Positions 9,746 through 31,546 of a stretch of DNA of 64,000 nucleotides are shown piece by piece (positions within the stretch are counted from its first letter, which is position 1; each line of letters starts with the position of its first letter). The translations under genes were made by a program, and so were the position numbers. A model generated the notes under the pieces. The model saw nothing but the letters and a program-made list of their open reading frames with translations. It was not told where the DNA came from and made no database searches. Location: NCBI GenBank assembly GCA_000091205.1, contig AP006484.2. One strand, 5' to 3'. This stretch comes from Cyanidioschyzon merolae. Its lineage: Eukaryota.

Positions 9746-9801
<56 letters not shown>

Positions 9802-9802
9802 A
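9719..9802. repeat. (CCAG)n tetranucleotide microsatellite, about 20 units, with CCAGT variants at the 5' side
   Basis: It is read directly from the sequence. The minus-strand ORF 9735-10064 translates it as GWLAGWLAGWLA, which is an artefact. Confidence 0.9.
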
Positions 9803-9840
9803 CTGGACCAGTGCCGCAGCCATCTCCTGCTTCGAAAAGG

Positions 9841-11619: not shown

Positions 11620-12065
11620 ACGGTCGGTGGCAACGGATGGGCAGTGTCCAGTTTGGGCATCGACGATCTGTCAATATTGTCTAGTTGTGGGGCTATCGCA
11701 CTTGGCAGCGCATGCAGATCGCAGCGCGCGCTCAGCGGCAACACGTTTTCCTGTTCAGTTGCAGGGACGTGTTCGAAGCGCTGGTGGCGTTTTGCAGTTT
11801 AACGGCGAGAATGTTCTGCAGCTATTGTAGAATTCAGTGGAACAGATCTATGTTGCTAACGTTTGCGTACATCATCATGTTTGAGTTTCTTCTTATTGGT
11901 ATTGTCATCGCCGTTTGAGGGATATGTCTGTAACTGTTTTTTTTTTCTGGAATGAGCTGTGATCTCCAGCTTTACAGAAGCAGGTCGTTCGTTTCCCTTC
12001 AGCTCTGCTATGCGCAGTCCACGGGTGCCGATGGTAGCGATAATGTCCCGGCATTGTGGCATGCG

Positions 12066-12830
12066 GTTGTTGTCGACGCATTAGATGCACAGGCGTAAGT
12101 TGCGACCTATGCTCTGCCTGCTATTTTCATCTTATTTGTATGCATCCTCGGTGCCGTCGTCTCAACACTGACACCTGACAGCGGTCAGGTACTCTCAAGC
12201 ACCTATGGATCTGCGCCCTCCGAACGCTGCACTATGGTGCGTGAACGCCTCCTTTATCGCTCGATGCACGCCCTTGACGGGTACAGAAAGCTCTGCATCG
12301 ATGCCGTCCTCGGTTTCCGCGCCCGATGCAGTACCGTATGCTACCAGGCTTGTTCTGCTCGATACGCTCGGAGAGTACTCCGTATGTTGCACGTGCAAGC
12401 GCGCGCTGTTCCATTCCATGGAGGATCTGTGGAAGGCGACAAATCTATGACGAAATAAAGCATCAGAAGAAAAATCGAGGCTGGAGTCTATGTCGAGAAA
12501 TCGCGATCCGTGTACATGCCGCACTCGTAAAGCGATACCGCACTCTCCGCTGGATGCGGTCCGCGCGATGACTCATGCCAAAGTCCAAGAATCGTTTCGA
12601 TGCGAACCGAAAGGACGAGAGCCCGCAGTACCTTATATTATGAGAAGGATCGCGGTACTGTGGAATCCAGTCTTGTCGATGTTCACAAAGATAGGGAAAT
12701 CTGTCTTCGGAATGAAATCTATTATTTGACGCGACAAGTCCTGGGAACTCTCAGCATGAGCTTGTGAACAAGTCTTCGAAAGACAACGCGGTGCACGATC
12801 ACTCGTCAATCCAGCTGTGCGCATTGCTGT
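12066..12830 (-). mobile_element. copy 1 of a ~750-bp non-autonomous repeat derived from a Tc1/mariner-like DDE transposase
   Basis: DNA-level similarity to 19030-19800 and 53420-54130 runs along the whole length. For example gttgtcgacgcattagatgcacaggcg matches gttgatgtcgacgcatttgatgcgcaggca, and gcatgagcttgtgaacaagtcttcgaaagacaacgcgg matches gcatgagcttgtgaacaagtcgtcgaggtacgacaacgcg. Minus-frame remnants carry the first DDE block (FVNIDKTGF, compare Tc1 SDESKF). Confidence 0.55.
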
Positions 12831-13125
12831 GCGCTCCAGTTGCCTTGAACTACAAAGATCTTAATCTTGAAGAATCTCTGATTTGGGCATGATACATGTA
12901 CGGAAGGCAGAATAGTCGAGGCCTGCACACATCTATGTCAGTGAAACAAGAACGCTTTACGAGCATGGAGGGAAAATATATATTCACTCACAGAGGCCTT
13001 CGAATCTTCTTCAACCGGCGGCCTGCTTTCTGTTTCAGCTTCTCCTGACTCACTTCGAGCTTCAGAGGCTGCCCCATAAGATTGGATCGCGTAAGCTCAT
13101 CGGGTCTCGTCTCCAGCACCGCATA

Positions 13126-13560
13126 TCATCTGAGCCTGATGGCGGCGTTGAAGTCACAATTCATGAACTCCATGCGTCCGCTGCAGCCGGTTGAACGCCT
13201 CAATGCATGGATTGATAGAACACGTGCCCTCTGCGTCACCATAGTCCCGCCACCTGCTTCTTCTACTGCTTCGTCAGCTGCTCTTCCTCGCATGATCGTC
13301 CGTGAGAAGAGCATGTTTTTGTTTATCTTCCAGAAGCTGGCGGTGATGGACCTCCAGGATTCCCAACTTTCACGTCCGTACCTTTCCCTTAGATATTGTA
13401 CTCTGAAAATAAACGCAGTTTGAATGCGTCTGCTATAAACGGAGAAAAAGCATTTGATGACATGCACTTGACTGTGGAACGCAATGGAGGTGAAAGGCTC
13501 TAAAAACGGTTCGTGAAAAATCGCAATGGCACCAACGGAGCGCTCGATCCTGTGTCCCAA
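13126..13560 (-). pseudogene. C-terminal fragment of a TnpB/Fanzor-like (RuvC-III) nuclease gene
   Basis: The minus-strand translation ends ...RMEFMNCDFNAAIRLR. That is the D-x-D-x-NAA-x-N-I RuvC-III motif seen in the larger copies at 34409-34612, 45051-45719 and 46744-47097. It is only a short fragment. Confidence 0.45.
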
Positions 13561-13585
13561 AGTAACTTGATACGGTGCAGAACTG

Positions 13586-14653
13586 ATGACGCGCCTTTAT
13601 GGCGGAAAACTGGGACTTGAGCTTTGTTTCCAGAGCTACCTCGGCAGTGGCTTTGCCTTGCCTAGCACTTTCGAAAAGAGGCCAGTGCAGTGCTGTGGTC
13701 AACCTGGAAAGACGACTCGGAAGCTGCTCCAGTCTCGTGTACGACGAACTAGGACGACTCAGGCTCGCCGCGGACCACACGGACAGTGGCCCGACAATCG
13801 ACTAGCAGAGTTTGCGACCAAGTCAGGTAAGCAGCGCCCCATCTTTGTTCCAGTCGCTTCAGCTGTGCCGCCAGCACCGGAATACGCCGTCCCGGGCACG
13901 GTCTATCTCGTGGGGGCCGGCCCCGGCGCCTACGAGCTGCTCACGCTACGGGCGTGCAGCCTGCTACGCACAGCCGACGTGGTTCTATACGATGATCTCG
14001 CCCAGGGCTTGATAAGCGAAGAACTTTGGAATCGCTTGAATCGTAACAATCCGCCATCGCTAACGCTTTGTGTCGGCAAGCAAAGGTACAAGCAGCGCGA
14101 AATCAATGAGTTGATGGTGCATCAAGCCAAGAACCTGAACCGAAGTGTGCTACGCCTGAAGTGCGGTGATCCCAGTCTCTTTGGCCGTTTGCACGAGGAA
14201 GTCGCCGCATTACGCGAGTCCCAGATCCCTTACGTGGTGGTTCCCGGTGTGTCGTCGTGTACGGCGGCACCGATCGCAGCGGGGATTTTTCTCACGGAAC
14301 GGCAACACGGACGCAGTGTGTTGTTGCTCAGCGGCCATGACGCTTCAGAGATTCCATATGAAGCAGCCGCTTGCGCTGCGGACACGCTTGTGCTCCTCAT
14401 GGTCGGCAGGAATTTAAGTGCTGTGGCTGCAAGGCTCCTCGACCAGCTGTCGCCCAATGTGCCCGTGGCGCTCTGTAGCACAGTCGATGGCCTTCAGTGG
14501 AGAGGCACGCTTCAGGCGGCGGCCACTGGCGAGGCTACACAATTTCTTGTAGATGCAAAAACAGGAGAACTAAGGACAACAGTCGCAGTCATCGGAGCAG
14601 TTGTTCAGGACATCACTAGTCCCGGCCAAATCGCGGGCGTGTTTCAGACATGA
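13586..14653 (+). CDS. uroporphyrinogen-III C-methyltransferase (SUMT; siroheme/tetrapyrrole methylase) with an N-terminal extension
   Basis: GTVYLVGAGPGAYELLTLRACSLLRTADVVLYDDLA is the SAM-binding GxGxG of class III tetrapyrrole methylases. LKCGDPSLFGR is the GDP(S/F)xFG motif. The catalytic domain is preceded by about 95 aa that read as a possible transit peptide. Confidence 0.85.
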   Translation: MTRLYGGKLGLELCFQSYLGSGFALPSTFEKRPVQCCGQPGKTTRKLLQSRVRRTRTTQARRGPHGQWPDNRLAEFATKSGKQRPIFVPVASAVPPAPEYAVPGTVYLVGAGPGAYELLTLRACSLLRTADVVLYDDLAQGLISEELWNRLNRNNPPSLTLCVGKQRYKQREINELMVHQAKNLNRSVLRLKCGDPSLFGRLHEEVAALRESQIPYVVVPGVSSCTAAPIAAGIFLTERQHGRSVLLLSGHDASEIPYEAAACAADTLVLLMVGRNLSAVAARLLDQLSPNVPVALCSTVDGLQWRGTLQAAATGEATQFLVDAKTGELRTTVAVIGAVVQDITSPGQIAGVFQT

Positions 14654-17437
14654 GGCTGTCGTCGGGCATTGCATCTGCAGAAGAGGGCTCCAACGGGTGA
14701 ATTTACCATTTTGCGAACCGATTGGTGGCAAATGCCGCATTCTGCAACCAAAGGAGTGGCTCCGGAGCTTTCGCAAGAGAATATGCCATATAGCGTACCG
14801 ATTCTTGGGGAATTGTGCGCCCGGCAACACAAAGCGTTACCGGGACGCGGATCAAGCATATCCCGGGACCGGAGCTGCCCAATAGTTGGGAGCATCATTA
14901 TAGGCTTCTGCGAGAATAGTGGTTGCTCGTCAAATTTGGGGAATATGGGAACGGGGTGGTGCAGACACTGGTTCAGGTACCTGTCGAGTTCGCGAATCGT
15001 GCCTCTCTGAGGCGCGTTCATTGCCAAGCCGGGAATACTCGTTTTCAAGGACGAAACATCGAGTTTATCTGTAGCAATTGCAAAGCATTCAAACCTGTTC
15101 GGATGATTGTAACGCTGCCGCGCATGCGCCTGTTGGCTGTAGGTCGCCACTTGCAGTATCTGCGCAGAAAATAGAGCCCAAACACGAGATGCACTCGGAG
15201 CATGCGGGTGTGCTCGTAATCCGAGTCGTCCTATTGAACGAGCGCAGTGTGTGATTGCAAGTCGCCACTCTGAGGACTGAGCTGCCCTCGGGCGGGATGG
15301 ATTGAACGACGCCAAGTTTCGCTCGTTGAAGTCCTTGTTGTTTTGACGCATTAGATTCTTCTGCGTGGTGCGAGCGCTGTTCTTGCAAAATACCGAGAAT
15401 GCGAACCAGTGCTCGCCAGGCGCTTGCGTCTCGCTGCGGACCCCTGACGGAGACGATCTCGATGTGTAAAGTGAATGCTTGCAGCATAGACAGCTCTAGA
15501 CGCGAGTATGGAGAAATAAGCGACAAGACCTACAAACCTACTTGAACCCAAAGCGATCGTTCATCGATCAACCGATCATTCAGTGTGACGGGGGTATCTA
15601 TACGGCATGCGTTACTGATTTCTTCGACCCCGAGGTGCTGCCTGCTCAAAAGCCAACGAAACATCTGATCTTATGGGTAATGACGTGCACGCTTTTTTCG
15701 GGAAATATACTTCTTTATGTATGTGAGCGCATTCAAACTGGAGGCACGCCACAGGAAAAGCGATGTCGCAGAGAGTGCGCCAGCGCACAAAAGTGTCCAC
15801 GAAAAGTGCACGCTGCGCGATGTTCTCATGGTGCACGATCCATGATTCCAGACCGGACTCACCCAGAGTGGCAACCTCGCCGAAATATCAGGCTAGGCTC
15901 CACTGTTTCTACCCGGATGCTTCTACATCCGTCCAGCGCCAGGCCGGTATCTGATCAGAATCAGGTCATGGGGAGGACAGCAACGTGTGCATTGCGTTGG
16001 GGGCAAGCATTCACGGTAGCCTGCAGCAATAGGGGATGCTGCAGGATGCATACATCCAAAACAACTCCTCCTCATAGGCGAATGCCGTCCCCAACTAGGA
16101 GACAACTCCCAGATCGTTCAACGACTCTTTCGCGTTCAAGCAAACCCCGCGCTGTTCTCCACTACGAAACAATGGCTTGATCGAGCCAGCGACCTGCTGT
16201 GAGCGGGAATCGGTGCGGACTCCCAAGGTGGCACCCAATACGTCATAGCGCAAGTCGTCGGGCGAAAGGACGGCGTTGCCAGCTTCCCCAACGCGTCAAC
16301 TCGAAGCTATGCGCGATTCTGCATGCACTGACTGCAGAGATCCGTCGCTTTCTCGGAGCCTCGACCAGGAGGAAAATGCTTCTCCGAGCTCGATGGTATA
16401 CCGGAGAATACGGACGAAGGTCTGGGAACTTGTCGTGAGCAATGCCGAGAAAACAGCAAAGGTTCTCTCGTTGCTCCCACTGTCTTGCCGCTTTTGACGG
16501 AGCAGCGACATCCTTATCTGGATACAAACCCCCGAGCAGTCACCACACGCGTTGCTGCGGGCTTCTGTTTTGAGCCAATCCTATGAGAGGAAATCACCTC
16601 GCTCCCATGACCAGCACCTCCGTTGGGTACTGCACACGGCATGTGATGTGTTGCTGTATGGCGTTCGCGCCTGCCCTAGCCAGGCTGCCTCTTCACCAGA
16701 AGGGACAAAAGTGTACCACACAATGTTCGGGCCATCGAACCGCATACCGTTCCATTCTTTTGCTTTTTTTCTGATCGTGAGTTCGTATGAGCGTTTAGAG
16801 GAACCGTGGGATCCCCAAAAGCGCAATGATTATCGGCATCCGGGAAAGTGTTCACCATGCAGCCTCATTCGCTTCAGAGTCATGAGCCATCACCATCCAT
16901 TTTGCCGTTCTGGATCATGGTTCGTTCATATGATCCTCCGGGTACCGAGTGCCTTCCGTGTGCGTCCACGACGACGCCTGTAGCGGATATGCGCGGACTA
17001 GGCACATGGAGAAGGCCCAGCTTTTTCAGGCGGCCGCATCGATGAGGCAGGTGCGCCCAGCAGCCGATCGCTGTGGCAACGCGTCTCCTCAGGAAATTCA
17101 AATCGAGACGCAGTCGACGGGTGCGGACTTCGACACCCGCCGCCTGCAGACCGCGTCGGTTGCGATGCGTTCGCAGCGGCAGAGCGTTCGCTGCTGCCTC
17201 CAGGACGTGTGTTCATAAACTCGGGTCGAGGAAACTTGCAGTTGGGGCGCCCTGGGGTGGAAAACAGTTGTTTTGAAAAGTTTATAACCGTGGGTGTAAG
17301 TGCCGGCAGGGTCATCACTGACAGGTCTCGCAGGGGGCTTTGCAGCCGTTCCCAGTTCCGAGTAAGCCCGTTAGCAGGGACGCATCTGGTGCCTGCGGTG
17401 CGGTAGCGCTAGCGAAAACCCAGACAAGCAGGCATCT

Positions 17438-18232
17438 GTGCGCATTGATCATCTCTGTATGATGTCCCCTGTTTACTTGGGGTTTTTTGCCGCGTTCCCT
17501 GCGGTAACGATGCTGATAGACCTTTCAGTGCTGCTGCCCGGGCAGTGGCCGCCGCACGCGCTCGGTGCGCTGCGCAGCACACTCCACTGGTGGACGAGCA
17601 CCCACGACCCGCTCATGGGCCAAGCCCCTGTGTGGTTCAAAGCTATGACACTTGTAGAGGTTGCGATCATTCCTGGCTACAGTGCGCTCGCACTACGGTC
17701 CCTGGTCCGCAACTCATACCCGCCGTGGATGGTGCCGCTCACATTTATCTTTTCGACAGTTTGCGTCTACTCTGTGTTGCTCCTGGCCGCCGAAAATATC
17801 TATGGCCTGAAGCGGAACCTTCTGGACAAGGACGGGACGCCATGGTTGCTCGCGTATGCACCATTTGTGCTCATCCCGATGCTGTGGAGCAGGCACGTGC
17901 TGCAAGCAGTGGCGAATCACGGCAGGGCTGCGCCACCGGCCAAGGTACTCGCAGATCTTTCGAAGCGTCGCACGAACCGATCGACTGCTGGGCGAAAGGT
18001 GGAAGCGAATACACACACTGTAGCAAGGGAGCGCAGGAAAAAATCTCCCGCGTCTCTCACAAGCTCAACGAACACTGAGTCGAGCCATCGAGTAACACCC
18101 ACTGTACAAGAGGCTCGCTTGCTTGTCGGCGAGGCCGACATGCGGACTCCCATAACGACCCGCAGTGGAGCACAGGCCCGCAGAGCTCGTCGGAAAACGG
18201 CTGACGTTCCCGATACACACCAAGGAGCCTGA
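17438..18232 (+). CDS. TMEM97: TMEM97 / sigma-2 receptor-like EXPERA-domain membrane protein with a basic C-terminal tail
   Basis: YLGFFAAFPAVTMLIDLSVLLP, LHWWTSTHDPLMGQAPVWFKAMTLVEVAIIPGY and AYAPFVLIPMLWS are collinear with human TMEM97 ([67 protein letters not shown]). Confidence 0.78.
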   Translation: MRIDHLCMMSPVYLGFFAAFPAVTMLIDLSVLLPGQWPPHALGALRSTLHWWTSTHDPLMGQAPVWFKAMTLVEVAIIPGYSALALRSLVRNSYPPWMVPLTFIFSTVCVYSVLLLAAENIYGLKRNLLDKDGTPWLLAYAPFVLIPMLWSRHVLQAVANHGRAAPPAKVLADLSKRRTNRSTAGRKVEANTHTVARERRKKSPASLTSSTNTESSHRVTPTVQEARLLVGEADMRTPITTRSGAQARRARRKTADVPDTHQGA

Positions 18233-19029
18233 ATGCACCAGGCCATCGTAAGACGAACAGGACGCGTCGAGCACTGCGCAGTATAGGCGTTGCGTCGTGG
18301 ATGGAGCATGCTGCACGTTTGATCTTTTGTTCGCTACCAGACCATCGCAGGGCAGGTTCCAGAACGCACCACGATACACGCGAGCTGTATGAATGGGTTC
18401 CGAAGCCACGCACTGCTTTTTTTGGGAAATCTGGACCCCGAGAGAGCACTTTCGGTGCAGTGCTGCAGTACGACGTCTAGATTTGGAGTCTGCTGAAAGC
18501 TCAGCGCATCTAGCACAGGCACTTGTAAACTTTTCAAAGAAGTTTCATTTGCAAACATAAAGGCTGGCTTGCTCGACGGCATGAACTCTGGGCAAGGAGC
18601 TTCTGTGGATGAATGTGCCGTGTTCGGTCCTCAAAGTTGCTGATAGGGCAAAGTGCCGCAAACTTGCTTCCCTACCTTAATGAAAACGTGAAACTGCATC
18701 AAAATTACGGAGGGAAACGTCCACTCGCATGGCCCTCCGCGCTGCCGCGTGAAGCTCATGGTGTCCGTGCGATCGATTCTCGGGGCTCGAAATTCATTTC
18801 AGACCAAAACGGATCTGGTACCCGTAACAAATACGAGTCTAAGCACTAAAGTTTGGATCGCTTTCCACTGTAACCAACACCAACCGTCGCGAAATTTATC
18901 TGTGACTGTTTACTTTTCCTCTCTCGGATCACAGTCCTTGAATAAGTTGGTTACTCCATTTTGCTCCAAGCTCCTTTGCTAGCAAGCGAAGCATGGTGAT
19001 GTCAGCGTAAAAGTCTCGATTTCATTGCG

Positions 19030-19800
19030 TCCGGTTGATGTCGACGCATTTGATGCGCAGGCAAATATCGCGGTCAACGCATCGCTTGCGATTTCCATCT
19101 TCTTTGTCTACAGCGAACGTGCTCCCTTCCGACCGGTGACATATGGTTGTGGTCAGGTGATCGGATGTTTCCAGGAAACCGCGTCCTCCGAGGGCTGTTC
19201 TGTTGCTCTTCATAGCCTGCATCATCGCTCAGTACAAGCTCTTGACGAGTACAGAAGGCTCTCCCCGATGCCATGCACTGTTTCCGCGCCCGGTGCCATA
19301 CCCTAGAATCACGAGCTTCTTCTCTGAAATGCTGTTTGCGCGTACCCTCATTGCTGGACAAGCAGGCGGAAGCTGTTCCATTAGATACAGGATTTGTGGG
19401 ACGCAATCTTGCTTATGAAGAAAATGTGCTGGAAAGAAGACTCAGGGTGCAGAACAAGTCGAGAAATTTCATATCGTAAACTCTATTTTCATGCAAAGCG
19501 TCAACACATGCTCCTCTGGAAGCGATCGACGCGATAACAGAATTCCGTATCCAAGACTGGTCTGCATGCAAACACAAGTGACGGGAGCCTCTGGGAGCAT
19601 ATCTCTCGGGAAAAATATCTTGCTGCTTTTCAATGCCGTTTCGTGGATGGCCGCAGATAAAGGAGGATTTGTCTGCGAAACGGGATCCATCATTTGACGT
19701 TACAGGTTCAGCAGAATTCCGGCATGAGCTTGTGAACAAGTCGTCGAGGTACGACAACGCGTTTTTCCATCGTCAATCGAGCGGTGCGAAACACTGCGCC
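19030..19800 (-). mobile_element. copy 2 of the ~750-bp Tc1/mariner-derived repeat
   Basis: See 12066-12830. The minus ORF 19413-19757 carries FADKSSFICGHPRNG, a degenerate DE-first-Asp block. Confidence 0.55.
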
Positions 19801-20700
19801 TACGAATTGTCCTGAATCAGTAACATCCATAATTTGAAGTCAGCGTCCTCTTAGGATGCGCTACATAAAGAACGGAGAATAGTTGAGGCTTGCACGCATG
19901 AATGAAATTACGATATCGGGTAGGTTACGATTGTATATGCGATGGCATCGCCAGTTACCCTGAATCCGGTGAGGTAACGAAACCTGCCTGCAAAGCGTCG
20001 AACGTATCACTCCATAAATATGACCTAGAATCCTGTAATGAAACAAGCATCCAGAAGCTTTCTTTGTTAGTTTCCGAATTTCCGAGCCGTCCAGTTACTA
20101 AATATTTGGAAAGTCTCGATAAGCACGAGTGGAGCGGACAGTTCAGTGTTCCACTTGAATCTGACCCACATGCAGCAACAATGTCGGATGCCGAACGCAC
20201 ACAAAATCGCATGGAGTGTTGCCCCCATGAAGCAGCGCCTTCCAGCATCGCCACGAACTGCAACCTAGAAATACTAGCGCTTTGGCGATGCCTGCGTTTG
20301 GCCAGCCCTGTCACGAGTTGTCAAGTGCTGGACCTGATGCTTTCGACGTCCAGGTCGCCGCCTCGGAGCCGTGTGTGTCGAGCTTGGAGTGCCCGTGAGA
20401 GTCTCGACATTGCAGTGCGAGTCGCACAGTATTTGCCGACGCCCTATACGACTTAACTGTCCGAGCCACAATATCTCAGATGGACTGCAGCGGCTCGGGC
20501 AGGCGTCTCTGTTCTCCATGCATAGGTGAAGAAAGGCGGCATCGGCAGCGTCCGCAACGCTGACGAGGCATGGCGTCGGCGACATTTCCCACTCTCTGCC
20601 TGCTTATGCAATGACTGAAGTCTTTCACCTGTTCATGAACTCGTGCGACCCTGAGCCGATATCAGTTTTTATTCGATATTCTGATCAGGCTTGAACGTAA

Positions 20701-22320
20701 ATGCTGCAATCAATGAGTTTGGAAGCAAGGGTTCTTGAGACGCGGAAGAAGGGCGCGTCCAAACACGAGGTGTCCGTAGCTCGCGGGCGAAGCAACGCTG
20801 CTGCCGAAGCGACGCTGCAAACTGCACAGCATCCGTCACAACATGCCGTCCTGGCATACCAGTGCTTCGTGGCCCCGATGTCACCGCTGCGTCTGCAAAG
20901 AAACTCGGAGAATAGGACGCGGCGACTTTGCTCTGTAAGAACGAAGCGACGCTTCGGAAACACAGCGCAAAAGACACAGCGCCTCGAGATTCGTTCGACG
21001 GTGCCCAAGTCAGAGCAACCTGCTGTTCAATACAAAATAGTGGACGCTCTCATCGAGTCCAAAGTCGCAGAGCTTTATCCGCACTTTGCACAAGTTGATC
21101 GCCGAACCGCCTACCATCTAGGACGGATACTGCAGACATTCCGTGCACATCGCCTTGGTACACACCATTTTGCGAGCATCAACGGATACGGACACGGCGA
21201 CATAGGTCGAGACACTCTGGATGCCATCTATGCGGACCTCTTCGGTACAGAGGCGGCACTGGTGCGCGCACAGTTCTTCTCCGGGACGCATGCAATAGCC
21301 TCGTGTCTGTTCGGGGTCCTGCGCCCCGGAGATGAGATGCTTTCGATAAGCGGGAAACCCTACGATACCCTCGAAGAGGTCGTTGGCCTGCGACCCAGTG
21401 CCAATGGGGCTGGAGGCTCCCTTCGCGATTTCGGAATCGAATACCGAGAGCTGGAGCTCAGTGCATCCCACGGGAACATCCTCGATTGGGATGCGCTCGC
21501 CCAAGGAACCTGCTTCTCACCGAAAACCCGCCTGTGCTTGATCCAACGCTCCCGCGGATACGCCTGGCGACCGTCGATTTCCGTCAAGGATATCGTTCGT
21601 GCTGCTCGAATCATCAAGAGCCACCGGCCAGACATGATTGTTTTCGTCGATAATTGCTATGGCGAGTTTGTTGAGGAGTTCGAACCTACGAATCTTAGCG
21701 ACGACATTGACCTTATGGCAGGATCGCTGATCAAGAACCCTGGCGGGACCCTTGCGCTCGGCGGCGGTTACGTAGTGGGGCGTGCAGCGCTGGTCGCTGC
21801 CGCAGCTAACCGCCTCGCAGCACCGGGCGTCCACGGGGGCGCCACCTACAACCTTAATCGAGTCAACTATCAGGGCTTATTTTTGGCGCCTCAGATGGTA
21901 GGAGAGGCGCTCAAAGGGGCAATGTTAGTCGCTACTACGCTTCTTGAGCTCGGGTTTGAGGTATCGCCCATGCCGCCTCAATTCGGAGGAGAAGCAGCCC
22001 ATCGCACAGATATCATTCAGGCCGTTCGACTCGGCGCGCCCGAGCTGATTGTTGCCTTTGCTCGAGCGGTGCAGAAATGGTCCGCTGTAAGTGCATATGT
22101 CCAGCCTACAGCCGGTGCGACACCAGGTTATGAAGATCAGGTGATTTTCGCCGACGGCACCTTTATGGAAGGAAGTACGTTGGAGCTTAGCGCAGATGGG
22201 CCACTTCGTGAACCCTATGTTGTGTACGCACAAGGTGGCACGCACTGGACGCATTGGATTCATGTCTTGCGTGAGTTCGGCGCAGTACTAGATCAACAGC
22301 GCCACGTAAAACTAGGGTAA
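20701..22320 (+). CDS. PLP-dependent methionine gamma-lyase-like protein (PF06838, YnbB / 'aluminium resistance protein' family) with an ~140-aa N-terminal extension
   Basis: INGYGHGDIGRDTLDAIYADLFGTEAALVRAQFFSGTHAIASCLFGVLRPGDEMLSISGKPYDTLEEVVGL, IQRSRGYAWRPSISV, VFVDNCYGEFVEEFEP, AGSLIKNPGGTLA, YQGLFLAPQMVGEALKGA, PGYEDQVIFADGTFMEGSTLELSADGPLREPYVVYAQGG are near-diagnostic for this family, which is mostly bacterial. Confidence 0.82.
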   Translation: MLQSMSLEARVLETRKKGASKHEVSVARGRSNAAAEATLQTAQHPSQHAVLAYQCFVAPMSPLRLQRNSENRTRRLCSVRTKRRFGNTAQKTQRLEIRSTVPKSEQPAVQYKIVDALIESKVAELYPHFAQVDRRTAYHLGRILQTFRAHRLGTHHFASINGYGHGDIGRDTLDAIYADLFGTEAALVRAQFFSGTHAIASCLFGVLRPGDEMLSISGKPYDTLEEVVGLRPSANGAGGSLRDFGIEYRELELSASHGNILDWDALAQGTCFSPKTRLCLIQRSRGYAWRPSISVKDIVRAARIIKSHRPDMIVFVDNCYGEFVEEFEPTNLSDDIDLMAGSLIKNPGGTLALGGGYVVGRAALVAAAANRLAAPGVHGGATYNLNRVNYQGLFLAPQMVGEALKGAMLVATTLLELGFEVSPMPPQFGGEAAHRTDIIQAVRLGAPELIVAFARAVQKWSAVSAYVQPTAGATPGYEDQVIFADGTFMEGSTLELSADGPLREPYVVYAQGGTHWTHWIHVLREFGAVLDQQRHVKLG

Positions 22321-22848
22321 TGATCCACGGAACAGCATTCGCCAATGCATGATGAATCCCGAGCAACGCTGTGGCGTCCTGCGCGTCGAATTTACAATTT
22401 GCTGCTACATACTGGCGTTAAAACACCCTGGTTCAGGCATGATGATACGGGTTGCGCAGAGCCGCGATAACGCTGCGTGCAGCACCGAAAGTTGCAATCT
22501 CTGATTGAGGGCAAGCGAGGCGTCATCATCGACGACTGGGGCAGCGCTTGTGCGGGACCTCGAGATTCGCTTCAAGGCTTACATGCGCAGTGGGTTCCGG
22601 TGAAAGCGGCACCAAATCATGGAAGCTGCGCACTTGAAAAATTCACCTCATGGATGCAACTGAACCCTGCAGATGCCCAGGCGTTGCACTGAGCAACCTG
22701 GGAGTCATTTCGCTCGGCTCCGCTGCATAACCGCGTGCATCATCACGGTGGCGCAGAGTCGAGTCCAGTGCCAAAACCCTCGCCAACAGAACTTGTCCGT
22801 CGTGTTTTTTTTCACTGCGCACGCCCATGCCAACTAGCCGAGCAACGT

Positions 22849-23454
22849 CTACTGATCGAAAGACGAGCTACTTTCCAATAGCTCGTATGGGTTCACGTAG
22901 GAGTCAGTTCCGTAAATTGGTGGTTTATGCTGAACACTGTGACCCCCGCCATGAACCGCACCCGCCCCGTATATGAAAACGAACAGAACTCCCGACAAAA
23001 TCGAGAGGAAGAAAATGGACCCCACAACGAACAGCGCCTGCGAGCGCTCTTGCTGCGCCCTCACGTAGGTACGAACAGTCCGACCACCGCGTTCACGTCG
23101 CAACGGTGCCTCCAGAGCACTGTCCTTGGTCGGCGGCACACGCCCCGCGACGGGTGCCTCTTCGCTGCCGTATAGGTCCCGAACGCGCCGCCTCAGTGAC
23201 TCTAAAAGTGCGCTGTCTGAACCGTCCGGTTGGTCATCGGGCGAAATCGGGTTTTCAGGGCCATCTGGGAACGGTCCACTGGCTCGCAGTTTCCCAAGGC
23301 GACACGCAAACCGCTGACGCCCGAGGTACCGAGGACCAACGCGAGCAGCGCACGTACTAACACGAACAGTGTGACCCGTCTGTAGCAAGTGACGAGACGC
23401 AAAGGCAAACGCTGGCGCCCCACGAGCTGACACCGCCTCGTCTCTACGAAGCAT
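22849..23454 (-). CDS. hypothetical small protein with a single C-terminal transmembrane helix (tail-anchored-like)
   Basis: The ORF is 201 aa. It has a Pro/Arg-rich N-terminal half and one TM helix (LFVVGSIFFLSILSGVLFVFIYGAG). No family was recognised. Confidence 0.3.
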   Translation of the reverse strand: MLRRDEAVSARGAPAFAFASRHLLQTGHTVRVSTCAARVGPRYLGRQRFACRLGKLRASGPFPDGPENPISPDDQPDGSDSALLESLRRRVRDLYGSEEAPVAGRVPPTKDSALEAPLRRERGGRTVRTYVRAQQERSQALFVVGSIFFLSILSGVLFVFIYGAGAVHGGGHSVQHKPPIYGTDSYVNPYELLESSSSFDQ

Positions 23455-24198
23455 TTCCGCTCGTTTGCACGCTCAGGAGCACTAGCCCGAGCCTAAACCG
23501 ATGCTAGAATTGCGCACAATCTGGAAGCAAGCCGCGGATTGCGTGCTGCGGGCGTGCAGGGCGCATGTGGCTGCGCGTGCGCGTTGAAGCGCCTGAATTC
23601 CCCGTACTGCTCTCGTGTAGGCCTGGTGCAAAGGTCGTTAGAGGAGTCCCGGGGCACGTGCCTGGTGACCGGAAAGTGAACCCTTTCTCTGCCGCATTTT
23701 CAGCGAGAAGGGTTATAATTAGAGCGGTGAATTCTCGAGTGCAAGTAGTAGCACACCCTTTTCGTACATGTTTGTATATCTCCCATGTATTCAACAAAAG
23801 GAACACAGCATATAGATTGGAGAAAGGCCGTCTAGAGCTTCATTGAAATCACTGATAGCTTTCAAAGAAAGAGCGTTCCTCATCCAACCTGGCTATTCTA
23901 GGAGCGGCTGGGGATGAGCTGTCCTTCAAGTAGTTTCTATCCTGAAGTCCGTTCAATCAACATGGAACTTATCAACCGCTTTGTACGCGACTGTTCACTC
24001 GAGAATCCGATCCATTTCATGCCTTCTCGGAGAAATGCGTCCGAGGACACCACAGTATATGAAGTTTTCATGTCATGAATGTAAACGTTGACGATGAGAC
24101 TCGGATGCACAAAGGCACTCTTCCAGGCGAAAGCGGCGCGCGTTGAATAACGCACGATCGATTCCGTACTGAAATGCGAACGTTGGTGACAGCATGGA

Positions 24199-24501
24199 GT
24201 GATGGTCATCGCGCTTGATGAGACTTCATTCGGCCGAGACGGTAGGCCTGTATACTACTTTTCAAAATGGCGCAGATTGCTCTTCCCAAGGAGTTTACAG
24301 GCGAGCATGCCGACAACATCAGCTCCGGCTGCGGTGTCATCGCGTGGTCCGCCAGTAATCGACACACAGACAGGACCTTTCAACAGCTCATCCCTCATCG
24401 AAGCGAGTTTCATGGCTTCTCTCTCCGGAATTCTTCTCTCCTGGTGCCAGACAACGCCGCTTTCCAGCAACGCAAATGCTGTGGAGGAGTACCCAATGTA
24501 G
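24199..24501 (+). pseudogene. fragment of a Tc1/mariner-like DDE transposase
   Basis: ALDETSFGRDGRPVYYFSKWRR matches the Tc1 first-Asp block SDESKF..GSDGNSWVRR. It also matches the relics at 28169-28642 and 58970-59569. Confidence 0.45.
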
Positions 24502-27268
24502 ACTGGCGTTGAGCTGCTCCTTGTAACAGCCTATTCTCTCTGGTTGAAATGATCCCGCGTCTTTTCTGATGCCATATGCCATTTTGATGCCCAAGCATCA
24601 AAATACAAGCAGCTAGTGACCAGGACAAGATTTATCGATATAACGTTGTCTACCTTTACGAGAACGAAACTGGGTCGTTCCTCCTCTGCTTGTGCTCCGG
24701 TGCAAACGGGAAGACGCGCTACAGTCAGTAGACATGCTCGCAACGAAAGTGACGAAAAGGCACTGGAGGGTGAGTAAATTCATATGTGCACTGGAAAAAG
24801 AGAGCTCCTTTACCGCCGTCCATCCATTCCGTCTAAATCCCGAGATGCAAACCAGATAAAGAACATCGTGAACACATCCATGCACTCCGCCAAGCAACAG
24901 GGAAAAAGAACCCATCACGTAGCGAAAAGAAAGATCTTCCAGAATAGAGCACGAAAAGAAAAGGAAGGAGAAATTAACGAAGTGGGAAGATCAGCCTGTA
25001 ACCATTGTCGAATCCTCACACTGAAACACATCAACGGTCAGAATCATCCAAAGAGTAACATACAGGACGCTTTCATAGAAAATGCAGCTTCATGTTCGAG
25101 CATATTTCGTCTCGCTGTTTCCGCTTTGACGTACCATGTCAAGAAACTGTTTGTGCGTGTTCCATGCAACGGGCTGGCAACTGTCCACCTCAGCCTGGAA
25201 TCGTTGGATCTACCCGTCGCGTGATACCGCGAATGCTACTCGGGACAGAGGACACATGGCGGTATGACCGTTCGATCAGAGGTTTGGAAGCAAGCTCCCT
25301 TGGACCTCGATGATGCGTCGCTGCGCCACCTGGTCCATCAAAACTTTTACAGTGAAGGATTCAAAAAAACTGTCAAACCAAGCTCAAAAGCCATATCCAG
25401 GATGATGTCGAACGCTTCTCGAGGCGCAGCCTTTGGGCTTTGTATAAATTGTACCCTCTCGTTACTGTTCCAGAAAAGTAGGGACAGATAGAAAGGATTC
25501 TTTGGCATGTCGACGGAGGCAAATGACGAGTTGGTTGCTGTTGAACTTGAGTTCGTGGAGAGGACGGGCGAATGCCGCTACAGGCGCGAGAGTCGCTCAA
25601 GTCATGCTAGCTCATCGCATGTCGACCGCCTCCGGACCGATCGATGTCTTTACTAAAAGACAGTTGGAGCATAAGCGCTGCCTTGCGTGCCTCTGGCGCA
25701 ACGACGTTTTCCTGAACACAGCGCTCCAGAGCAAAACAGATCCCTTCACCGAATCCGAGTGCCCGAGCCTCCTCGAGCGCCTTTCCGTTGTGACTACAAA
25801 TATCCCATCATGGCCAACTATATTACCGTAGGAGCTTCAGTACTGCATGGCCGTTTCCGTGATTTACGTCTAATCTGGGCGGGCAATCAGGAAACTTTCG
25901 AAAGACTTTGTAAAGAGGGCTAGCTGTGTGCGTCCGGGGTTCCTCGTATTCGGGGGAGAAGTGGAGCGCATTACACAGGAACCAGGGAACCCGACGACAC
26001 ATCATTGAGCATGAACTTCGTGAAACTTGCGCATGAATCAACAGATGAGGTTCATTTTCAGCAGTTCAAAGTACATGAAAAGAAAGAATTTTCTATGACC
26101 ATGGATCCCAGGTTGTCGAGCACCATGGCCGACGCCGTCCCTCTGAACCAAGAGGTGAGACGCGAAGACCCGAATGGGAACCAGGTGAAGCTGCTCAACT
26201 TTCCCAGGGCTTGGCATTATCGGGAATTGGGTATGGTGGACGCCCGGAAGCATGCCAACAACCGGAATGGCGTCGCGGTCCATCTGGACGCTGTGCGCGT
26301 CATATCGAGCTGAGCGCGGTGCTCTGTACGCTTCATTTAGGGCATACATGGGCGTCCAAATGGATGCTGCAGACGCTTTTTGGCGGGAGTCCTTGAGACC
26401 GCGCTTGAGGCACCAATTTTTTCGCATGTACGGAGGCGAGAAAGGTGCATCCGCGAACTTGTTCAATGACGTGGAGAAGGAAATGACCAATACGTCGTGA
26501 AGTTTTGTGGTAGTCTAAGGCACTTGACTCTCTGTAGAGCGCAACTGCCGCACTCCTACTCGCTTGGAAAGAGAGTGCGACGCCGACGGGAACCGATTCC
26601 GTACGACTCCCATCGAAGCAATTCGGACGACACACACACACACATCACGAGCACTGGTGCTCGCCGGAGCACATTGAAAAGAATAGGATGAAAAGGGTTG
26701 AAGACACGAAATGCTTTGCGGTAAGCTAAGCGAACGTCAGACGACAACGCAGTTCAAGATGAGAGGCTTCGTATGGTGCGATTTCACAAACAACAATGCG
26801 CCCAAGCATATCTGGTCAGATAACTGAACGTTTTTGTCAGAATACAGAAATTTGGCGGGCTTCCGGAGCGTCAAGCAGTTTCGAGTTGGGCGAAGTTTCC
26901 AGAGAATCGCTCAGTAACCAGTGTGAACATTTTGCTGACAAGTTGTAGATTTGCAATGACCCGTAACAATGGCGTGGCGAATGGACAGTGGGTTTTCGCC
27001 AAGAGCTGGGTACTGGGATTGCGTGGGTCAGCCATCCAGCAAATCTGGAGCACCGCGCATGTCCATCGGGATAGATTTAATCTTGTCATCTGGTAGAAGG
27101 TAATCGAGATCCGTGATTCGATGTTACTGAGTATGCATTGCTCCACGGTCACTCTGTGGCACACCGGAAAGGAGCTTGCCGGCGTCGACGAACTCTCAGA
27201 GGAAATGCAGTTCCAGTTGTCTTTCGACGAAATTTCATAATACATATGGCATTGTCTCGGCGATGGAG

Positions 27269-27674
27269 TCATTGAAACAAACACGTTCTACGAAAATGAA
27301 AGGCAAATAAACATACCCACTTATCGGCGTCTCTCCGGCTTATTTTTGACCAGCTGACTGCTATCGGCTTCAGTTTCTCCATGCACGCTGCGAGCACCAG
27401 AGCCTGTCCCACAAGGTTTGCTCGCATCAGGTCCCTAGGTCTCGTCTTGAGCAGCCCAGATCGTCTGATGTTGATGTCGGCGTTGGAGTCTGGGTTCACG
27501 CACTCCATGCGTTTCCTTGCGCTGGTTGAGCACAGCAATGGAAGGATTCATCGGACTCGCACCCCCTGCGCGAATACACTCTCATCATCGCCTCGTCGGG
27601 CAAACACCTTTACTCACCTGGCATCCCGCTTCTTAGTTTGTTTTGTCACTTGCTCTTCTTCGCTCGATCGTTGA
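27269..27674 (-). pseudogene. C-terminal fragment of a TnpB/Fanzor-like nuclease (RuvC-III block)
   Basis: The minus ORF 27269-27538 reads MECVNPDSNADINIRRSGLLKTRPRDLMRANLVGQ. Compare copy D, EYVNRDFNAAINIRRCAVIERRPPELARENFVGQP. It lies directly downstream of, and on the same strand as, the transposase relic at 28098-28700. Confidence 0.5.
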
Positions 27675-28097
27675 TGAGAAAACTATTCTTCGTTTTTTCC
27701 GGCAGCCGGCGATAGCGGCCCTACGGGATCCTCGGCTTCTATGTGCATACACTTCCTTGGAATTTCTATTTCTTCAAATGAATGCAGTTCATTATGCCCT
27801 TAGATAAGGAACTTCCCGGAGGCAGAGGAACTTGTGGAAGAACGACGAAGTGTACCCTGGTGTCACCATGCTGAAACCTGCAGCGATTCGCCCAGTGCAG
27901 CGATCACCACGTTTTTCAATTGGAAACACTCCTTCGATGGGGTAGAGCAACGGGAAGTACCAAGAAGTGAAAACCTGCTCGTCCCCGATAGATTCGACGA
28001 AAGTTCGAATGCAAGGAGAATGGTGAAATGCCACCTTTTCGAATAGAAGAACGTCGCCAAACGTTAGGGAAAATCCTTCAACGATTCGGAAAAGAGG

Positions 28098-28700
28098 GTG
28101 CTACTGTATGCACCTTCTCTACGAGCGAAACTGAGGTCGCCAAATGAATCCACTGCAGCTAGAAGAGATCACGATATCCTCGTTCTCTTCGAGCTCGACC
28201 GTACACACAACGGGCTCCACATCCGCAGGTATCCATATATGCTCCGTTCGGTTCCTCCGAAGGAAGTCGCATCGACTGGAAAACCAAACCGACGTTCCTC
28301 TGCTTCATACCGATCGCTGACTTCAAGGAACGCTGTCGTTGCGATTTCTCTTGAAGATGGCCAAGCTTGAACTACGACTTTTTTGCGAATGTATCCCAGT
28401 GTTTTCAGGACAACACGGACAAGATGTTGAGAAAGAGAGAAGCCCGTGGCGTCTATCATCGTCACTTTTGCTTTCAGTAAAAAAATCAATGGGTCGTTTT
28501 CTAGCATCGACTGCAAGCAGTCTTTGAGAATATCGGTTCTCGACGCAGAGCGCTTCCACTTTCTATCGGTGTTCCTTAACCATCTGAGAAAGGTGGTATA
28601 ATTGACCTGAATGAGGAAGGCAGTCCTCCCTGCACTGTTCAATAAAGAATATATATCATGCAGTCATTTCGACTCCGATACATGCGGTACAGTGCATAGT
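28098..28700 (-). pseudogene. Tc1/mariner-like DDE transposase relic
   Basis: The minus ORF 28169-28642 has an HTH-like N-terminus (GRTAFLIQVNYTTFLRWLRNTDRKWKR) and a DDE block (FGFPVDATSFGGTERSIYGYLRMWSP). It is homologous to 58617-59569 (WRTAFLVQLSCTAILRWSRNSYRTKNLRP and FVFPVDDTSHGRDGERVKGYSRRWSP). Confidence 0.55.
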
Positions 28701-28949
28701 GGCTTCGATGGTCTGCTATACATTACGAAAAAGCATTCGATTACTCGCAGCGGCCGAGTCACAGTACTGAGTTGAGAGACTAATCCAGCAGGTATGCGGT
28801 GGAGGCTGCAGGCAAGTTGCTCGATTCACATCTATTTTCGCAAACCGTGACCAAAACAACGCCGGGAGCGCCAGCGTATGACCCAGCTAGCTTTACAAAA
28901 GTATCCGGCTGCACTCTGTTGGTGAACGCTATTCAGGAAACGTTTAACC

Positions 28950-30053
28950 GTGGGCACGGTCAAGAGAACTGAACCAGCGCAGCTACGTAAGGCACTAGGG
29001 ACCTATGAGCTTGTGAGCATTAGTGCTGCAGCTCAAGTTGCGTGCACTTTTGTCCGAAACTCGCCTAGAACAAAGTTAGTCTTGCGCTCTAATCTCTACG
29101 AGAGCGCAGAGTCCACACTCACAAGAGGCAGCATGTACGCTTCCGAGACTGCCTCAACGCAGGGGCTTCCTGCACTGGAGCTGGATCCGGAGGAGCTGCT
29201 GGCACAGGTACAGCTGCTTCGCGCCGCGGTTGAGGGTTCTCGTCGAGAGTCCCGCGAGCTCGTAGGCGCTCTAGAGCGAGAGCGGCGTTTGAACTTGGAA
29301 ATGCGTCAAAGATTCGAAAGACAGTTCGCTGCTGTATCGGACCAGCTTCTGCAGCTGAACCACTTGCAAAAGGAGTCGGAAGCCTTGCTTCAAAGTTTAC
29401 AGGAGCAGCTGAACGAGGCCGAGTTGCAAAAAAATGCAGCCCAGCGGGAGCTCGCGTGTGTGCAACGACAACTGAGCCTAGCACGGGCAGAGGCAGACGC
29501 GGGGAAGCGTGTCCTAACCACGATCGCTGAAAAAGAGGCGTTGCTGCGTAAGACATCACAAGCGAACGCTGACTTGCAACAGATCGTCATGCACTTGCAG
29601 GCTGAGCTCCGTAATTCAGAACTACAACCGTCAACGTCGAATGCTTCTGAGGAGCGGCTTCACGAGGCCGAAATACCTTCGTTGGCTGACCGCGATGCAT
29701 ATCAGACGTTGCAACAAACGATTGAGAAACTGTCCGCGGAGCGTGACATGTGGTACCACGAATGCGCCCGCGCCAAGGAGGAATCGCTTCGCTTGCAACA
29801 GGATGCAGAGCGGCTTCGCGGGCTTCTTGACGAGCAACAGCGCGTCCATACCACTACCCAGACGTTGCTGCAGGATCGGCACTTGCTCATGCGTCGCATT
29901 ATTGCAGCACTTGCAGAGAAGTATCTCATGGAGAAACTACCTAATCAACACTACACCCAGGAAATAGATTCGTCCCCGTTTCAAGCACGTGGAGGAACCT
30001 CTGTACAAGAAGCCCATAAGCATGAAAGATTGCGTCGAGCGCGGTCTTTTTAG
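28950..30053 (+). CDS. coiled-coil protein (hypothetical)
   Basis: The ORF is 367 aa and is dominated by heptad-repeat, Q/E/L/R-rich sequence (LQSLQEQLNEAELQKNAAQRELACVQRQLSLARAEADAGKR...). There is no enzymatic motif. Confidence 0.5.
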   Translation: MGTVKRTEPAQLRKALGTYELVSISAAAQVACTFVRNSPRTKLVLRSNLYESAESTLTRGSMYASETASTQGLPALELDPEELLAQVQLLRAAVEGSRRESRELVGALERERRLNLEMRQRFERQFAAVSDQLLQLNHLQKESEALLQSLQEQLNEAELQKNAAQRELACVQRQLSLARAEADAGKRVLTTIAEKEALLRKTSQANADLQQIVMHLQAELRNSELQPSTSNASEERLHEAEIPSLADRDAYQTLQQTIEKLSAERDMWYHECARAKEESLRLQQDAERLRGLLDEQQRVHTTTQTLLQDRHLLMRRIIAALAEKYLMEKLPNQHYTQEIDSSPFQARGGTSVQEAHKHERLRRARSF

Positions 30054-30610
30054 GGCGCTGCAGAGGTCAGCCAGCGCCGCAACTCCGAAAACGGAATACT
30101 AACTATCACATAAATAGTCCCATGAATCTACTTCTCATGATGTGCAGCACATCGCTTATGGATCGGCTTTAGGCCAGAGCATCCTGGACCTTGAGTTTCG
30201 AGATTCTTCGAGGGCTCTGTCCCTTTGTCTACCATGCACCATTGCGGCACGTTTTGCGTCCTGCAGAATTGCGCGTATGCGGCGTCGCAGTGTGAACTGC
30301 AAAAGCCTGCCATCGCAGAGATCGCCATGCACGATTCAGTGGAAATCAGGAGCACGCTCTTGTACGAGCAGCTTCGATGGTCAGCGAGTGAGCTTATTAC
30401 AGGCAATGGCTTGCCTGGATGCCGGCACACATTCACTGATCCCATCGGAGAGCACTCATATCCGAGTATCGAGCACTGAAGATGAGACCAGTGGCACTCC
30501 GCCAATGGATGCCGCATTGGTGGCCCTGTAAAGTGGTAGATAATGCAGGTACTTGAATGGAAATCGCGCTTGAGCATCTACAACGGGTCGAGCGCCCCCA
30601 TGGCCGTTCC

Positions 30611-31546
30611 TCATGACGTACCCAAATCATGGATACGGATGGGGTCAAAATAAGGGCGTTGCTGTGCAAGAGCAGCGCCTAAGTTTTGCCACCATTCCGG
30701 GAGAAGCGTCCGAGCGATCATACGGAACCATGGAGTCAAAGTGTCCGCCTGGTGCTGTAACAATTTGTAGATATCTTCCCGTGTGCATGCTTTCACTGCG
30801 GCGACCTCGTTGGCATTCGGCTCTACGCGCAATCCAGTGCCCGTACTGCCGTCCAGCACGACTTTCTTGCGTGCAAAGAGGATATAGTCGACTTCGTGCT
30901 CGCCCCAAGCGGTATTTGTACGACAAACAGCCCTATATCGGATGCGTGTCAAGTATGAAAGGTCGTCAGGATGGAGACCGGTCAGGCCAAGTTCTTGTTG
31001 AAGCTTTCTCAACGCAGCACGTTTCACGCCAAGCACCGGGTCCGAGACGTTGCACTCGTCCGGGTTGAAGAGAGGGTGCGAGCAGCAGGTGTTCGCCCAC
31101 AGCAGAGGAAACGTGACCTTTGTTGCCGCTCGCTGCTGCAGAATCAAGCGGTTGTCTTCGTCGAAGAGAAAAACCGAGAAAGCTCTGTGCAAAGGTAGGT
31201 TATTCGAGACGAGATGGGCGTCCGCTTTGGAACAGCGTCCGATGACCCGGTCTTCAGCGTCTGTGAGGATGAGCTCTTCCGCAAGCAGAGCCCGTTGTAC
31301 TTCATCTATTCCAGATATCTGAGCTTCCATTCCCAAATAGGATCCTGTGGAGCTCTTTGGATCGAAAAAAGTGCCCCAGAGTCTGCGGAACACCAGACCC
31401 CGACGATACATATGCACATTGCGCGCTAGAAGGTGCGAATGGATTTGCTCCAGCGCTCGACTTGGCAGCGATGGACAGCGATCCATGGCGGGCGTCAGCG
31501 CTGGCGTGCATATTTTTTTCGATGACAAAATGTTTCCATGGACCAT
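30611..31546 (-). CDS. IDI1: isopentenyl-diphosphate delta-isomerase, type I (Nudix fold)
   Basis: [41 protein letters not shown] and [15 protein letters not shown] plus [19 protein letters not shown] are collinear with human IDI1 ([74 protein letters not shown]). The core is preceded by an N-terminal extension of roughly 70 aa. Confidence 0.92.
   Translation of the reverse strand: [311 protein letters not shown]

Follow-up and report, generated by a model that had tools for sequence, protein, structure and literature searches.

The YnbB protein of Bacillus subtilis belongs to protein family PF06838 and is genetically required, together with GsaB and YmfI, for 5-aminopentanolylation of Lys32 of elongation factor P (EF-P), a pathway in which it is suggested to work early on, as a C-S-lyase-type enzyme (Witzky et al. 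2018, PMC5885033); beside ynbB, the pathway genes of B. subtilis are gsaB, ymfI, yaaO, yfkA, and ywlG. YnbB and EF-P modification are also touched on in reviews (PMC13602936, PMC6522883), and in a survey of the pyridoxal 5′-phosphate (PLP) proteins of B. subtilis YnbB appears as no more than a “putative C-S lyase”, with EF-P modification as its known role. The present analysis concerns a gene of the same family in the red alga Cyanidioschyzon merolae, which lies on the plus strand of a 64,000-nucleotide stretch of contig AP006484.2 (the window). A first-pass annotation of this DNA had described a mostly bacterial enzyme and suggested that it was acquired horizontally long ago and later fitted with an organellar targeting peptide. 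Taken jointly, the family identity of the protein, its descent from the cyanobacterial plastid endosymbiont and its targeting to an organelle can be proposed with considerable confidence, a judgement that does not extend to its biochemical role.

The open reading frame (ORF) of 539 codons runs from ATG to TAA as the first-pass annotation had read it, and an in-frame TAA at 20698–20700 abuts M1, so that the ORF cannot extend further in the 5′ direction. Its product is a 100% match to XP_005535162.1/BAM78876.1, an “aluminum resistance protein” of C. merolae 10D that is encoded on a record of 457,013 bp. The reference genome of C. merolae thus already carries an annotation for the gene. Near-identical 539-residue variants of the protein are found in metagenomes, whereas an exact-sequence look-up for contigs encoding it gave no record.

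Searches against Pfam revealed a match to PF06838 (Met_gamma_lyase) of 512.8 bits (E = 6.7e-154, cutoff 24.2) that spans residues 117–520 and takes in profile positions 4–394 of 405. The closest solved structures, 3HT4, 3FD0, 3JZL, 3HVY, and 3GWP (E = 1e-113 to 1e-100; 39–45% sequence identity), are structural-genomics entries titled “aluminum resistance” or YnbB orthologue. An AlphaFold2 (AF2) model produced from an input alignment of 68 sequences was confident from approximately residue 111 onward, with a predicted local distance difference test score (pLDDT) mostly >90, and superposed on the same five entries with template-modelling (TM) scores of 0.89–0.92 (target-normalised) and root mean square deviations of 2.2–2.5 Å. 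The motifs GYGxDxGR, SGTHA, PYDTLEE, QRSxGY, VDNCYGEF, GSLIKNPGG, and ELSADGPxRxPY are all kept. Among the 68 aligned homologues K345, D317, and T196/H197 are invariant along with ∼90 more columns, and an alignment of 20 sequences covering several bacterial phyla retains 32 invariant columns, K345 and D317 included. Lys345 falls within residues 291–359, a stretch that matches the PLP-lysine region of PF01053 and PF00155, and is the putative Schiff-base lysine; by analogy with fold-type I enzymes generally, Asp317 would be the partner of the PLP pyridine nitrogen. By all sequence and structure tests made, the protein is a member of PF06838 and of its cyanobacterial/plastid branch. Both the YnbB family assignment and the motif-level match to Bacillus given in the first-pass annotation are upheld.

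The best matches to the protein were found in Cyanidiococcus (77% identity) and Cyanidium (72%), followed by Porphyridium, Purpureofilum, Compsopogon, the haptophyte Prymnesium, and plants; the eukaryotes are followed in the match list by very many cyanobacteria at 54–59% identity. Land-plant and algal homologues are 47–57% identical to the C. merolae protein. A plant search seeded with a lycophyte sequence returned, among the best 120 plant matches, mosses, liverworts, lycophytes, ferns, a conifer, Nymphaea, monocots, many eudicots, and the streptophyte alga Mesotaenium; none of the 120 came from Brassicaceae, at which no further search was aimed. The plant and streptophyte orthologues are ∼440–470 residues long, a length that indicates the presence of an N-terminal leader, and a PF06838 homologue is also present in the brown alga Ectocarpus. 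Leader-bearing homologues extend over four red-algal classes, mosses to angiosperms, a streptophyte alga, a haptophyte, and a brown alga. The family was considered overwhelmingly bacterial in the first-pass annotation, which is incorrect, since its members are common across land plants and algae; it is also abundant in bacteria (at least 8000 candidates, all 8000 that were scored being significant). Two of the plant sequences are irregular: the Diphasiastrum gene model (P0026) contains an exact repeat of 59 residues inside its PF06838 segment and the Heracleum protein (P0005, 776 residues) a second partial PF06838 copy, duplications with the appearance of annotation or assembly errors, or else of tandem copies.

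The GTDB collection, sampled at one genome per species, was scanned with the family alignment. The top 35 species matches to the C. merolae core were all oxygenic cyanobacteria (52–59% identity), behind which stood Bacillota (47–51%), Sericytochromatia (51–53%), and Vampirovibrionia (44–45%).

A neighbour-joining (NJ) tree of 101 sequences was built from 394 alignment columns with 200 bootstraps under Kimura and scoredist distances, and paired bootstrap values refer to these two corrections. All 30 eukaryotic sequences were monophyletic (92/91%), and eukaryotes plus oxygenic cyanobacteria were split from every other bacterium (94/98%). Within the eukaryotic clade, Cyanidiales were recovered at 100% and green plants at 99%, and red algae grouped with the haptophyte, Ectocarpus, and unnamed marine sequences (49/80%), in line with secondary plastids of red origin. 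Signature columns of the alignment, which provide evidence separate from tree-building, gave a concordant picture. T350, T514, and H515 are common to eukaryotes and cyanobacteria only, whereas F483, D485, and W519 are confined to eukaryotes, with Met at position 483 in cyanobacteria (100%) and in other bacteria (98%); no column pairs eukaryotes with non-cyanobacterial bacteria against cyanobacteria. Together with conserved gene order in Cyanidiales, the clades and the signature columns point to one endosymbiotic gene transfer and vertical descent thereafter. From the cyanobacterial endosymbiont the gene would have reached the host nucleus in an ancestor shared by red algae and green plants, descended vertically within Cyanidiales, and been passed onward to lineages with red-derived secondary plastids.

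Met1 of the ∼409-residue cyanobacterial homologues aligns with residue 112 of the C. merolae protein, which gives a leader of 111 residues; 116 residues precede the PF06838 match. The first-pass annotation had correctly described a basic, non-homologous N-terminal extension but had put it at ∼140 residues, which is too long. The 111 residues include 14 Arg, 6 Lys, 0 Asp, 7 Glu, 11 Ser, 8 Thr, and 13 Ala, and the net charge of the leader is +13 as opposed to −9 for the core. In the AF2 model the leader is predicted to be disordered (pLDDT 33–49 over residues 1 to ∼105), with a short helix at residues 2–16. The leaders of four Cyanidiales orthologues have a common composition but no alignable sequence, and those of the other Cyanidiales are 69–77 residues long. 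Every eukaryotic homologue carries a leader and the ∼409-residue cyanobacterial proteins carry none; the first-pass proposal of a targeting peptide acquired later, putative as that peptide is, appears to have been right.

An alternative start codon may lie at M60. M5 is replaced by Ile in 12 of 13 full-length strain variants, M60 is the next Met, and similarity to the Cyanidiococcus orthologue starts at nucleotide 20890 (residue ∼64). The 13 variants differ at only 8 positions, corresponding to 1.4–1.9 per 100 residues in leader and core alike, a divergence too low to discriminate between start codons, so that the variants speak only to the non-conservation of M5. Leaders of 111 residues (from M1) and 52 residues (from M60) are both possible. 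At 20866–20880 of the window, the residues F-V-A-P (56–59) stand directly ahead of Met60, 55 residues past M1. Phe-containing motifs of this kind occur at the start of the transit peptides of red algae, glaucophytes, and secondary plastids, and in the Ectocarpus homologue “SG/FVVP” is found right behind the signal peptide.

In Ectocarpus, Prymnesium, and most of the unnamed marine homologues, the leader opens with a signal-peptide-like hydrophobic segment (maximum Kyte-Doolittle value of 2.0–3.1 over 11 residues; “...CSG/FVVP” in Ectocarpus) that the Cyanidiales leaders lack (maximum ≤0.9). This arrangement resembles the bipartite form used for complex plastids and supports plastid targeting. 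The leaders of land plants are Ser/Thr-rich. Given these features and the cyanobacterial ancestry of the protein, the plastid is most likely its destination in C. merolae. The leader would act as a transit peptide for import into the plastid stroma, where a mature enzyme of ∼43–47 kDa would do the job of its cyanobacterial orthologue. A literature search for localisation data on plant or algal members returned none.

Several observations weigh against this account of origin and targeting. The tree is distance-based (NJ) only; its eukaryotes are sister to the sampled cyanobacteria, the monophyly of which received 70–72%, and are not nested among them; and it was built without Gloeomargarita, Gloeobacter, glaucophytes, or named chlorophytes. 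The choice between M1 and M60 bears on the leader itself. Moreover, the composition of the Cyanidiales leaders (Arg/Lys 18–22%, Ser/Thr 10–17%) also suits a mitochondrial presequence. With gene and origin unchanged, a mitochondrial destination of the protein, or a dual one in place of the plastid alone, is improbable, yet it is the best of the alternatives: beside this composition, the scarcity of acidic residues and the predicted helix at residues 2–16 would suit it. Three features argue for the plastid instead, namely the cyanobacterial ancestry of the protein, the signal plus transit peptide leaders of secondary-plastid algae, which are specific to complex plastids, and the chloroplast-transit-peptide-like character of the Ser/Thr-rich land-plant leaders.

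With respect to function, the C. merolae protein is 44–45% identical to close relatives of B. subtilis YnbB, which belong to the same single family but to a different branch of the tree. An identity of ∼45% between a red alga and Bacillus suggests that PF06838 enzymes may catalyse a conserved housekeeping reaction. The statement of the first-pass annotation that the function of the family is poorly defined even in bacteria still applies to the chemistry but is otherwise partly outdated, since ynbB is needed for the EF-P Lys32 modification (PMC5885033). A literature search on EF-P modification in cyanobacteria and chloroplasts yielded only the absence of EpmA and EpmB from cyanobacteria (PMC2821294), and a search of the available literature library for functional studies of plant, algal, or cyanobacterial PF06838 members found no such study, only incidental mentions. 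One paper lists an “aluminum resistance protein” among subtelomeric duplicates of Galdieria, a gene other than that of C. merolae.

Gene context was surveyed at 36 oxygenic-cyanobacterial loci and 40 Firmicute or other loci. Upstream of ynbB in the latter set lay genes for an hflX-type GTPase (hflX/ynbA; 21 loci), an AAA protein (spoVK-like; 19 loci), and miaA (11 loci), and downstream lay glnR (18 loci) and glnA (20 loci), on the same strand throughout. None of hflX, AAA, miaA, glnR, or glnA adjoined ynbB at any of the 36 cyanobacterial loci, and an hflX-type GTPase gene was found upstream of the YnbB gene in none of the three Cyanidiales genera (the window, L003, and L004).

A different arrangement was observed in cyanobacteria. 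At 32 of the 36 oxygenic-cyanobacterial loci, a gene for a DesC-type fatty-acid desaturase of ∼275 residues (PF00487) divergently adjoins the ynbB-like gene, often across a gap of only ∼100–300 bp; at two of the remaining four loci the upstream sequence is missing. The pair spans Prochlorococcus and marine Synechococcus to Nostoc and Pseudanabaenaceae and was present at none of the Bacillota, Vampirovibrionia, or Sericytochromatia loci examined. That the two genes stay divergently paired suggests that they are co-regulated or functionally linked. No prior description of the desC-ynbB pairing was found.

The best guess, made with low confidence and by analogy with YnbB, is that the C. merolae protein could catalyse, inside the plastid, a conserved housekeeping elimination or lyase reaction that depends on PLP, with plastid EF-P or a small-molecule precursor as its possible substrate. 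More specifically, cyanobacterial and plastid YnbB proteins might act in an undescribed modification of an EF-P lysine akin to 5-aminopentanolylation, or in a distinct acyl- or lipid-linked reaction at which desC hints, a proposal that is speculative and has low probability. Two points count against a role shared with Firmicutes: no gene neighbour is common to Firmicute and cyanobacterial ynbB loci, and the full Bacillus aminopentanolylation gene set has been reported in Firmicutes only (PMC5885033).

Slightly less probable still is a function as a sulfur-amino-acid lyase (methionine gamma-lyase (MGL) or cystathionine beta-lyase) or as a metal (aluminium) resistance factor. The Pfam name and the names chosen by depositors point that way, as do the distant fold and sequence similarity to MGL and cystathionine gamma-lyase (CGL) and the acidic, metal-rich habitat of the alga. 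However, the protein fell far short of every curated NCBIfam model for MGL and cystathionine gamma-synthase (CGS), scoring 16.8–29.7 bits against cutoffs of 504–666 (NF005695, TIGR01328, and NF006097 gave 29.7, 16.8, and 17.9 bits, with cutoffs of 666, 549.7, and 600), and PF01053 gave 15.2 bits with a cutoff of 27. Sequence identity to real MGL and CGL is 16–21% at a TM score of ∼0.6, and on these grounds a true methionine gamma-lyase or cystathionine lyase was rejected. The B. subtilis PLP survey, with its “putative” C-S lyase, likewise argues against a lyase of this kind. The “aluminium resistance” label reportedly stems from a single heterologous-expression report. The gene is conserved equally in non-acidophilic plants and marine algae, which argues against metal resistance and against an extremophile adaptation.

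Returning to the origin of the gene, a separate, non-endosymbiotic horizontal gene transfer (HGT) from a bacterium to Cyanidiales or red algae, with the presequence added later, is very improbable. Such an event would be in keeping with the abundance of PF06838 in bacteria, with the intronless gene, and with the HGT-derived genes for which Cyanidiophyceae are known (PMC9812998). Against it stand the single eukaryotic clade with its eukaryote-only F483, D485, and W519, the position of cyanobacteria as nearest bacteria, the synteny across three genera, and a distribution that is broad across plastid-bearing eukaryotes rather than patchy, with no non-cyanobacterial donor clade. Almost all genes of C. 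merolae are without introns, so that the intron-free state, offered in the first-pass annotation as a sign of HGT, carries no weight. The host-like composition noted there was confirmed: G+C content at third codon positions (GC3) is 0.575 in this gene and 0.53–0.68 in 15 neighbouring ORFs, and its relative synonymous codon usage (RSCU) correlates with that of the pooled neighbours at 0.68, inside the range of the same 15 ORFs. A recent HGT was rejected on composition, both measures being indistinguishable from those of neighbours. In the phylogeny that the first-pass annotation had called for, the gene falls within a broad, vertically inherited eukaryotic clade, the outcome named there as a refutation; of the old horizontal acquisition proposed there, the bacterial ancestry stands and the odd transfer does not. 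The acquisition is a standard endosymbiotic gene transfer with the plastid and no separate HGT.

Bacterial contamination of the assembly, be it of the contig or of the gene, has only the bacterial-type family in its favour and is ruled out by the identical protein on the 457-kb C. merolae 10D chromosome record, the flanking genes for POLD2, EBP, a protein kinase, and a HECT-RCC1 ligase, the repetition of the gene order in two further genera, the eukaryote-type leader, and the host-like codon usage; the eukaryotic chromosome named in the first-pass annotation is borne out.

The YnbB gene, seemingly single-copy in Cyanidiales, lies in a block that is collinear in Cyanidioschyzon, Cyanidiococcus, and Cyanidium, in the order EF-Ts(−), POLD2, FGGY, unknown(−), TP_methylase, EBP, YnbB, a ∼201-residue ORF(−) ... 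NUDIX(−). The neighbours in the window encode a GDSL lipase, EF-Ts, DNA polymerase delta subunit 2, an FGGY kinase, a tetrapyrrole methylase, an EBP-family protein, a NUDIX protein, a protein kinase, an AIG2-domain protein, and a HECT-RCC1 ubiquitin ligase. Among the neighbours listed in the first-pass annotation, POLD2 was recovered, TTK was recognisable only as a generic Pkinase domain, and ATAD2 could not be confirmed, no AAA/bromodomain (ATAD2-like) protein being present among the window ORFs scanned. No tandem repeats or tRNAs were seen near the gene. In Cyanidiococcus and Cyanidium an acyltransferase gene (564–569 residues) is located close to NUDIX, and tblastn found no match to it anywhere across the window. 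The EBP-YnbB spacer (18233–20700) measures 2.4 kb, compared with 1.46 kb in Cyanidiococcus and 0.33 kb in Cyanidium, and contains a 184-residue ORF (19902–20456, plus strand) with no Pfam match.

Further features of the window were noted in passing. A bacterial-type EF-Ts gene (PF00889; 4681–5571, minus strand) with an N-terminal extension of ∼90 residues adjoins POLD2, is syntenic with Cyanidium, and probably encodes another organelle-targeted translation factor. The segments 23455–28949 (5.5 kb) and 31547–35556 (4 kb) contain no ORFs of ≥160 residues and have a lower GC content (0.47–0.52), and at 32–35 kb the plus strand is purine-rich (GC skew up to 0.20, AT skew up to 0.28). The protein-kinase gene at 35557–38730 (minus strand) and the ORFs at 38175–40472 reach a GC content of 0.64, as against 0.50–0.59 elsewhere in the window. 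At 55081–58437 (minus strand), this alga with its very small genome encodes a protein of 1118 residues with HERC-type architecture, in which RCC1-like repeats are joined to a HECT ubiquitin-ligase domain at the C terminus.

Table 1. Coordinates of the YnbB-family gene, its parts and its gene context (window positions unless a locus is named)
Feature	Position	Strand	Basis or remark
YnbB/PF06838-family PLP enzyme gene, nuclear, complete ORF	20701..22320	+	539 aa, ATG start, TAA stop
N-terminal extension, aa 1–111, putative organellar (plastid) transit peptide	20701..21033	+	Alignment to cyanobacterial Met1
Alternative start M60, after F-V-A-P (aa 56–59)	20878..20880	+	Leader would be 52 aa
PF06838 (Met_gamma_lyase/YnbB) catalytic core, fold-type I PLP enzyme, aa 117–520	21049..22260	+	Pfam, PDB matches, AF2
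Asp317 in V-D-N-C-Y-G-E-F, putative partner of PLP pyridine nitrogen	21649..21651	+	Invariant column
Lys345 in G-S-L-I-K-N-P-G-G, putative PLP Schiff-base lysine	21733..21735	+	Invariant column
Collinear block in Cyanidioschyzon, Cyanidiococcus, Cyanidium	4681..31546	.	Conserved gene order
Firmicute ynbB context, examples	L057 2670–3935, L056 5816–7150	+	Loci L036–L085, Bacillota and others
desC-ynbB pair, example	L001 4758–5591 beside 6001–7230	− and +	
desC-ynbB loci	L001, L002, L005, L006, L008–L020, L022, L023, L025–L027, L029–L035, L039, L043, L045		

The gene is one of many cyanobacterium-derived nuclear genes in plastid-bearing eukaryotes and in that sense is ordinary and unsurprising. 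The plastid/cyanobacterial branch of PF06838 is nevertheless highly conserved, from Prochlorococcus to flowering plants, and C. merolae and model cyanobacteria are genetically tractable, which makes the gene a sensible choice for functional work on a conserved “unknown” enzyme of plastids. If an EF-P or desC-linked reaction were to prove correct, an enzyme strongly conserved from cyanobacteria to angiosperms would gain a function.

In comparison with known systems, genuine MGL, cystathionine gamma-lyase, and cystathionine gamma-synthase (PF01053; for example Pseudomonas putida MGL, 1GC0) share the fold-type I PLP superfamily with the C. merolae protein and match it weakly and locally near the PLP-lysine region; at the low identity and TM score given above they represent a different family. 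B. subtilis YnbB (BSU17440) and the structures 3HT4, 3JZL, 3FD0, 3HVY, and 3GWP/3I16 are alike in their full-profile PF06838 match and near-invariant motifs. The C. merolae protein differs from Firmicute YnbB in being nuclear-encoded and eukaryotic and in carrying the 111-residue leader, and Firmicute YnbB falls on a branch separate from the cyanobacterial/plastid one with 94–98% bootstrap support. Firmicute genes stand in an hflX-ynbB-glnR-glnA context that is absent from cyanobacteria and Cyanidiales, and the role in EF-P modification has been shown for B. subtilis YnbB only.

The nearest prokaryotic proteins are the cyanobacterial PF06838 members, represented by Picosynechococcus PCC 7003 (P0067), Moorena producens (P0031), and Nostoc sp. 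MS1 (P0107) at 55–59% identity. They share T350, T514, and H515 (in the C-terminal “GGTHWTHW” motif) with the C. merolae protein but are leaderless at ∼409 residues, are paired with desC, and lack F483, D485, and W519. The “YnbB-like” or “aluminum resistance protein” genes of Physcomitrium, Marchantia, Selaginella, Cryptomeria, tomato, Porphyridium, Prymnesium, and Ectocarpus belong to the same eukaryotic clade as that of C. merolae and differ from it and from one another in their leaders, which are non-homologous: Ser/Thr-rich in plants, composed of signal plus transit peptide in secondary-plastid algae, and Arg-rich in Cyanidiales.

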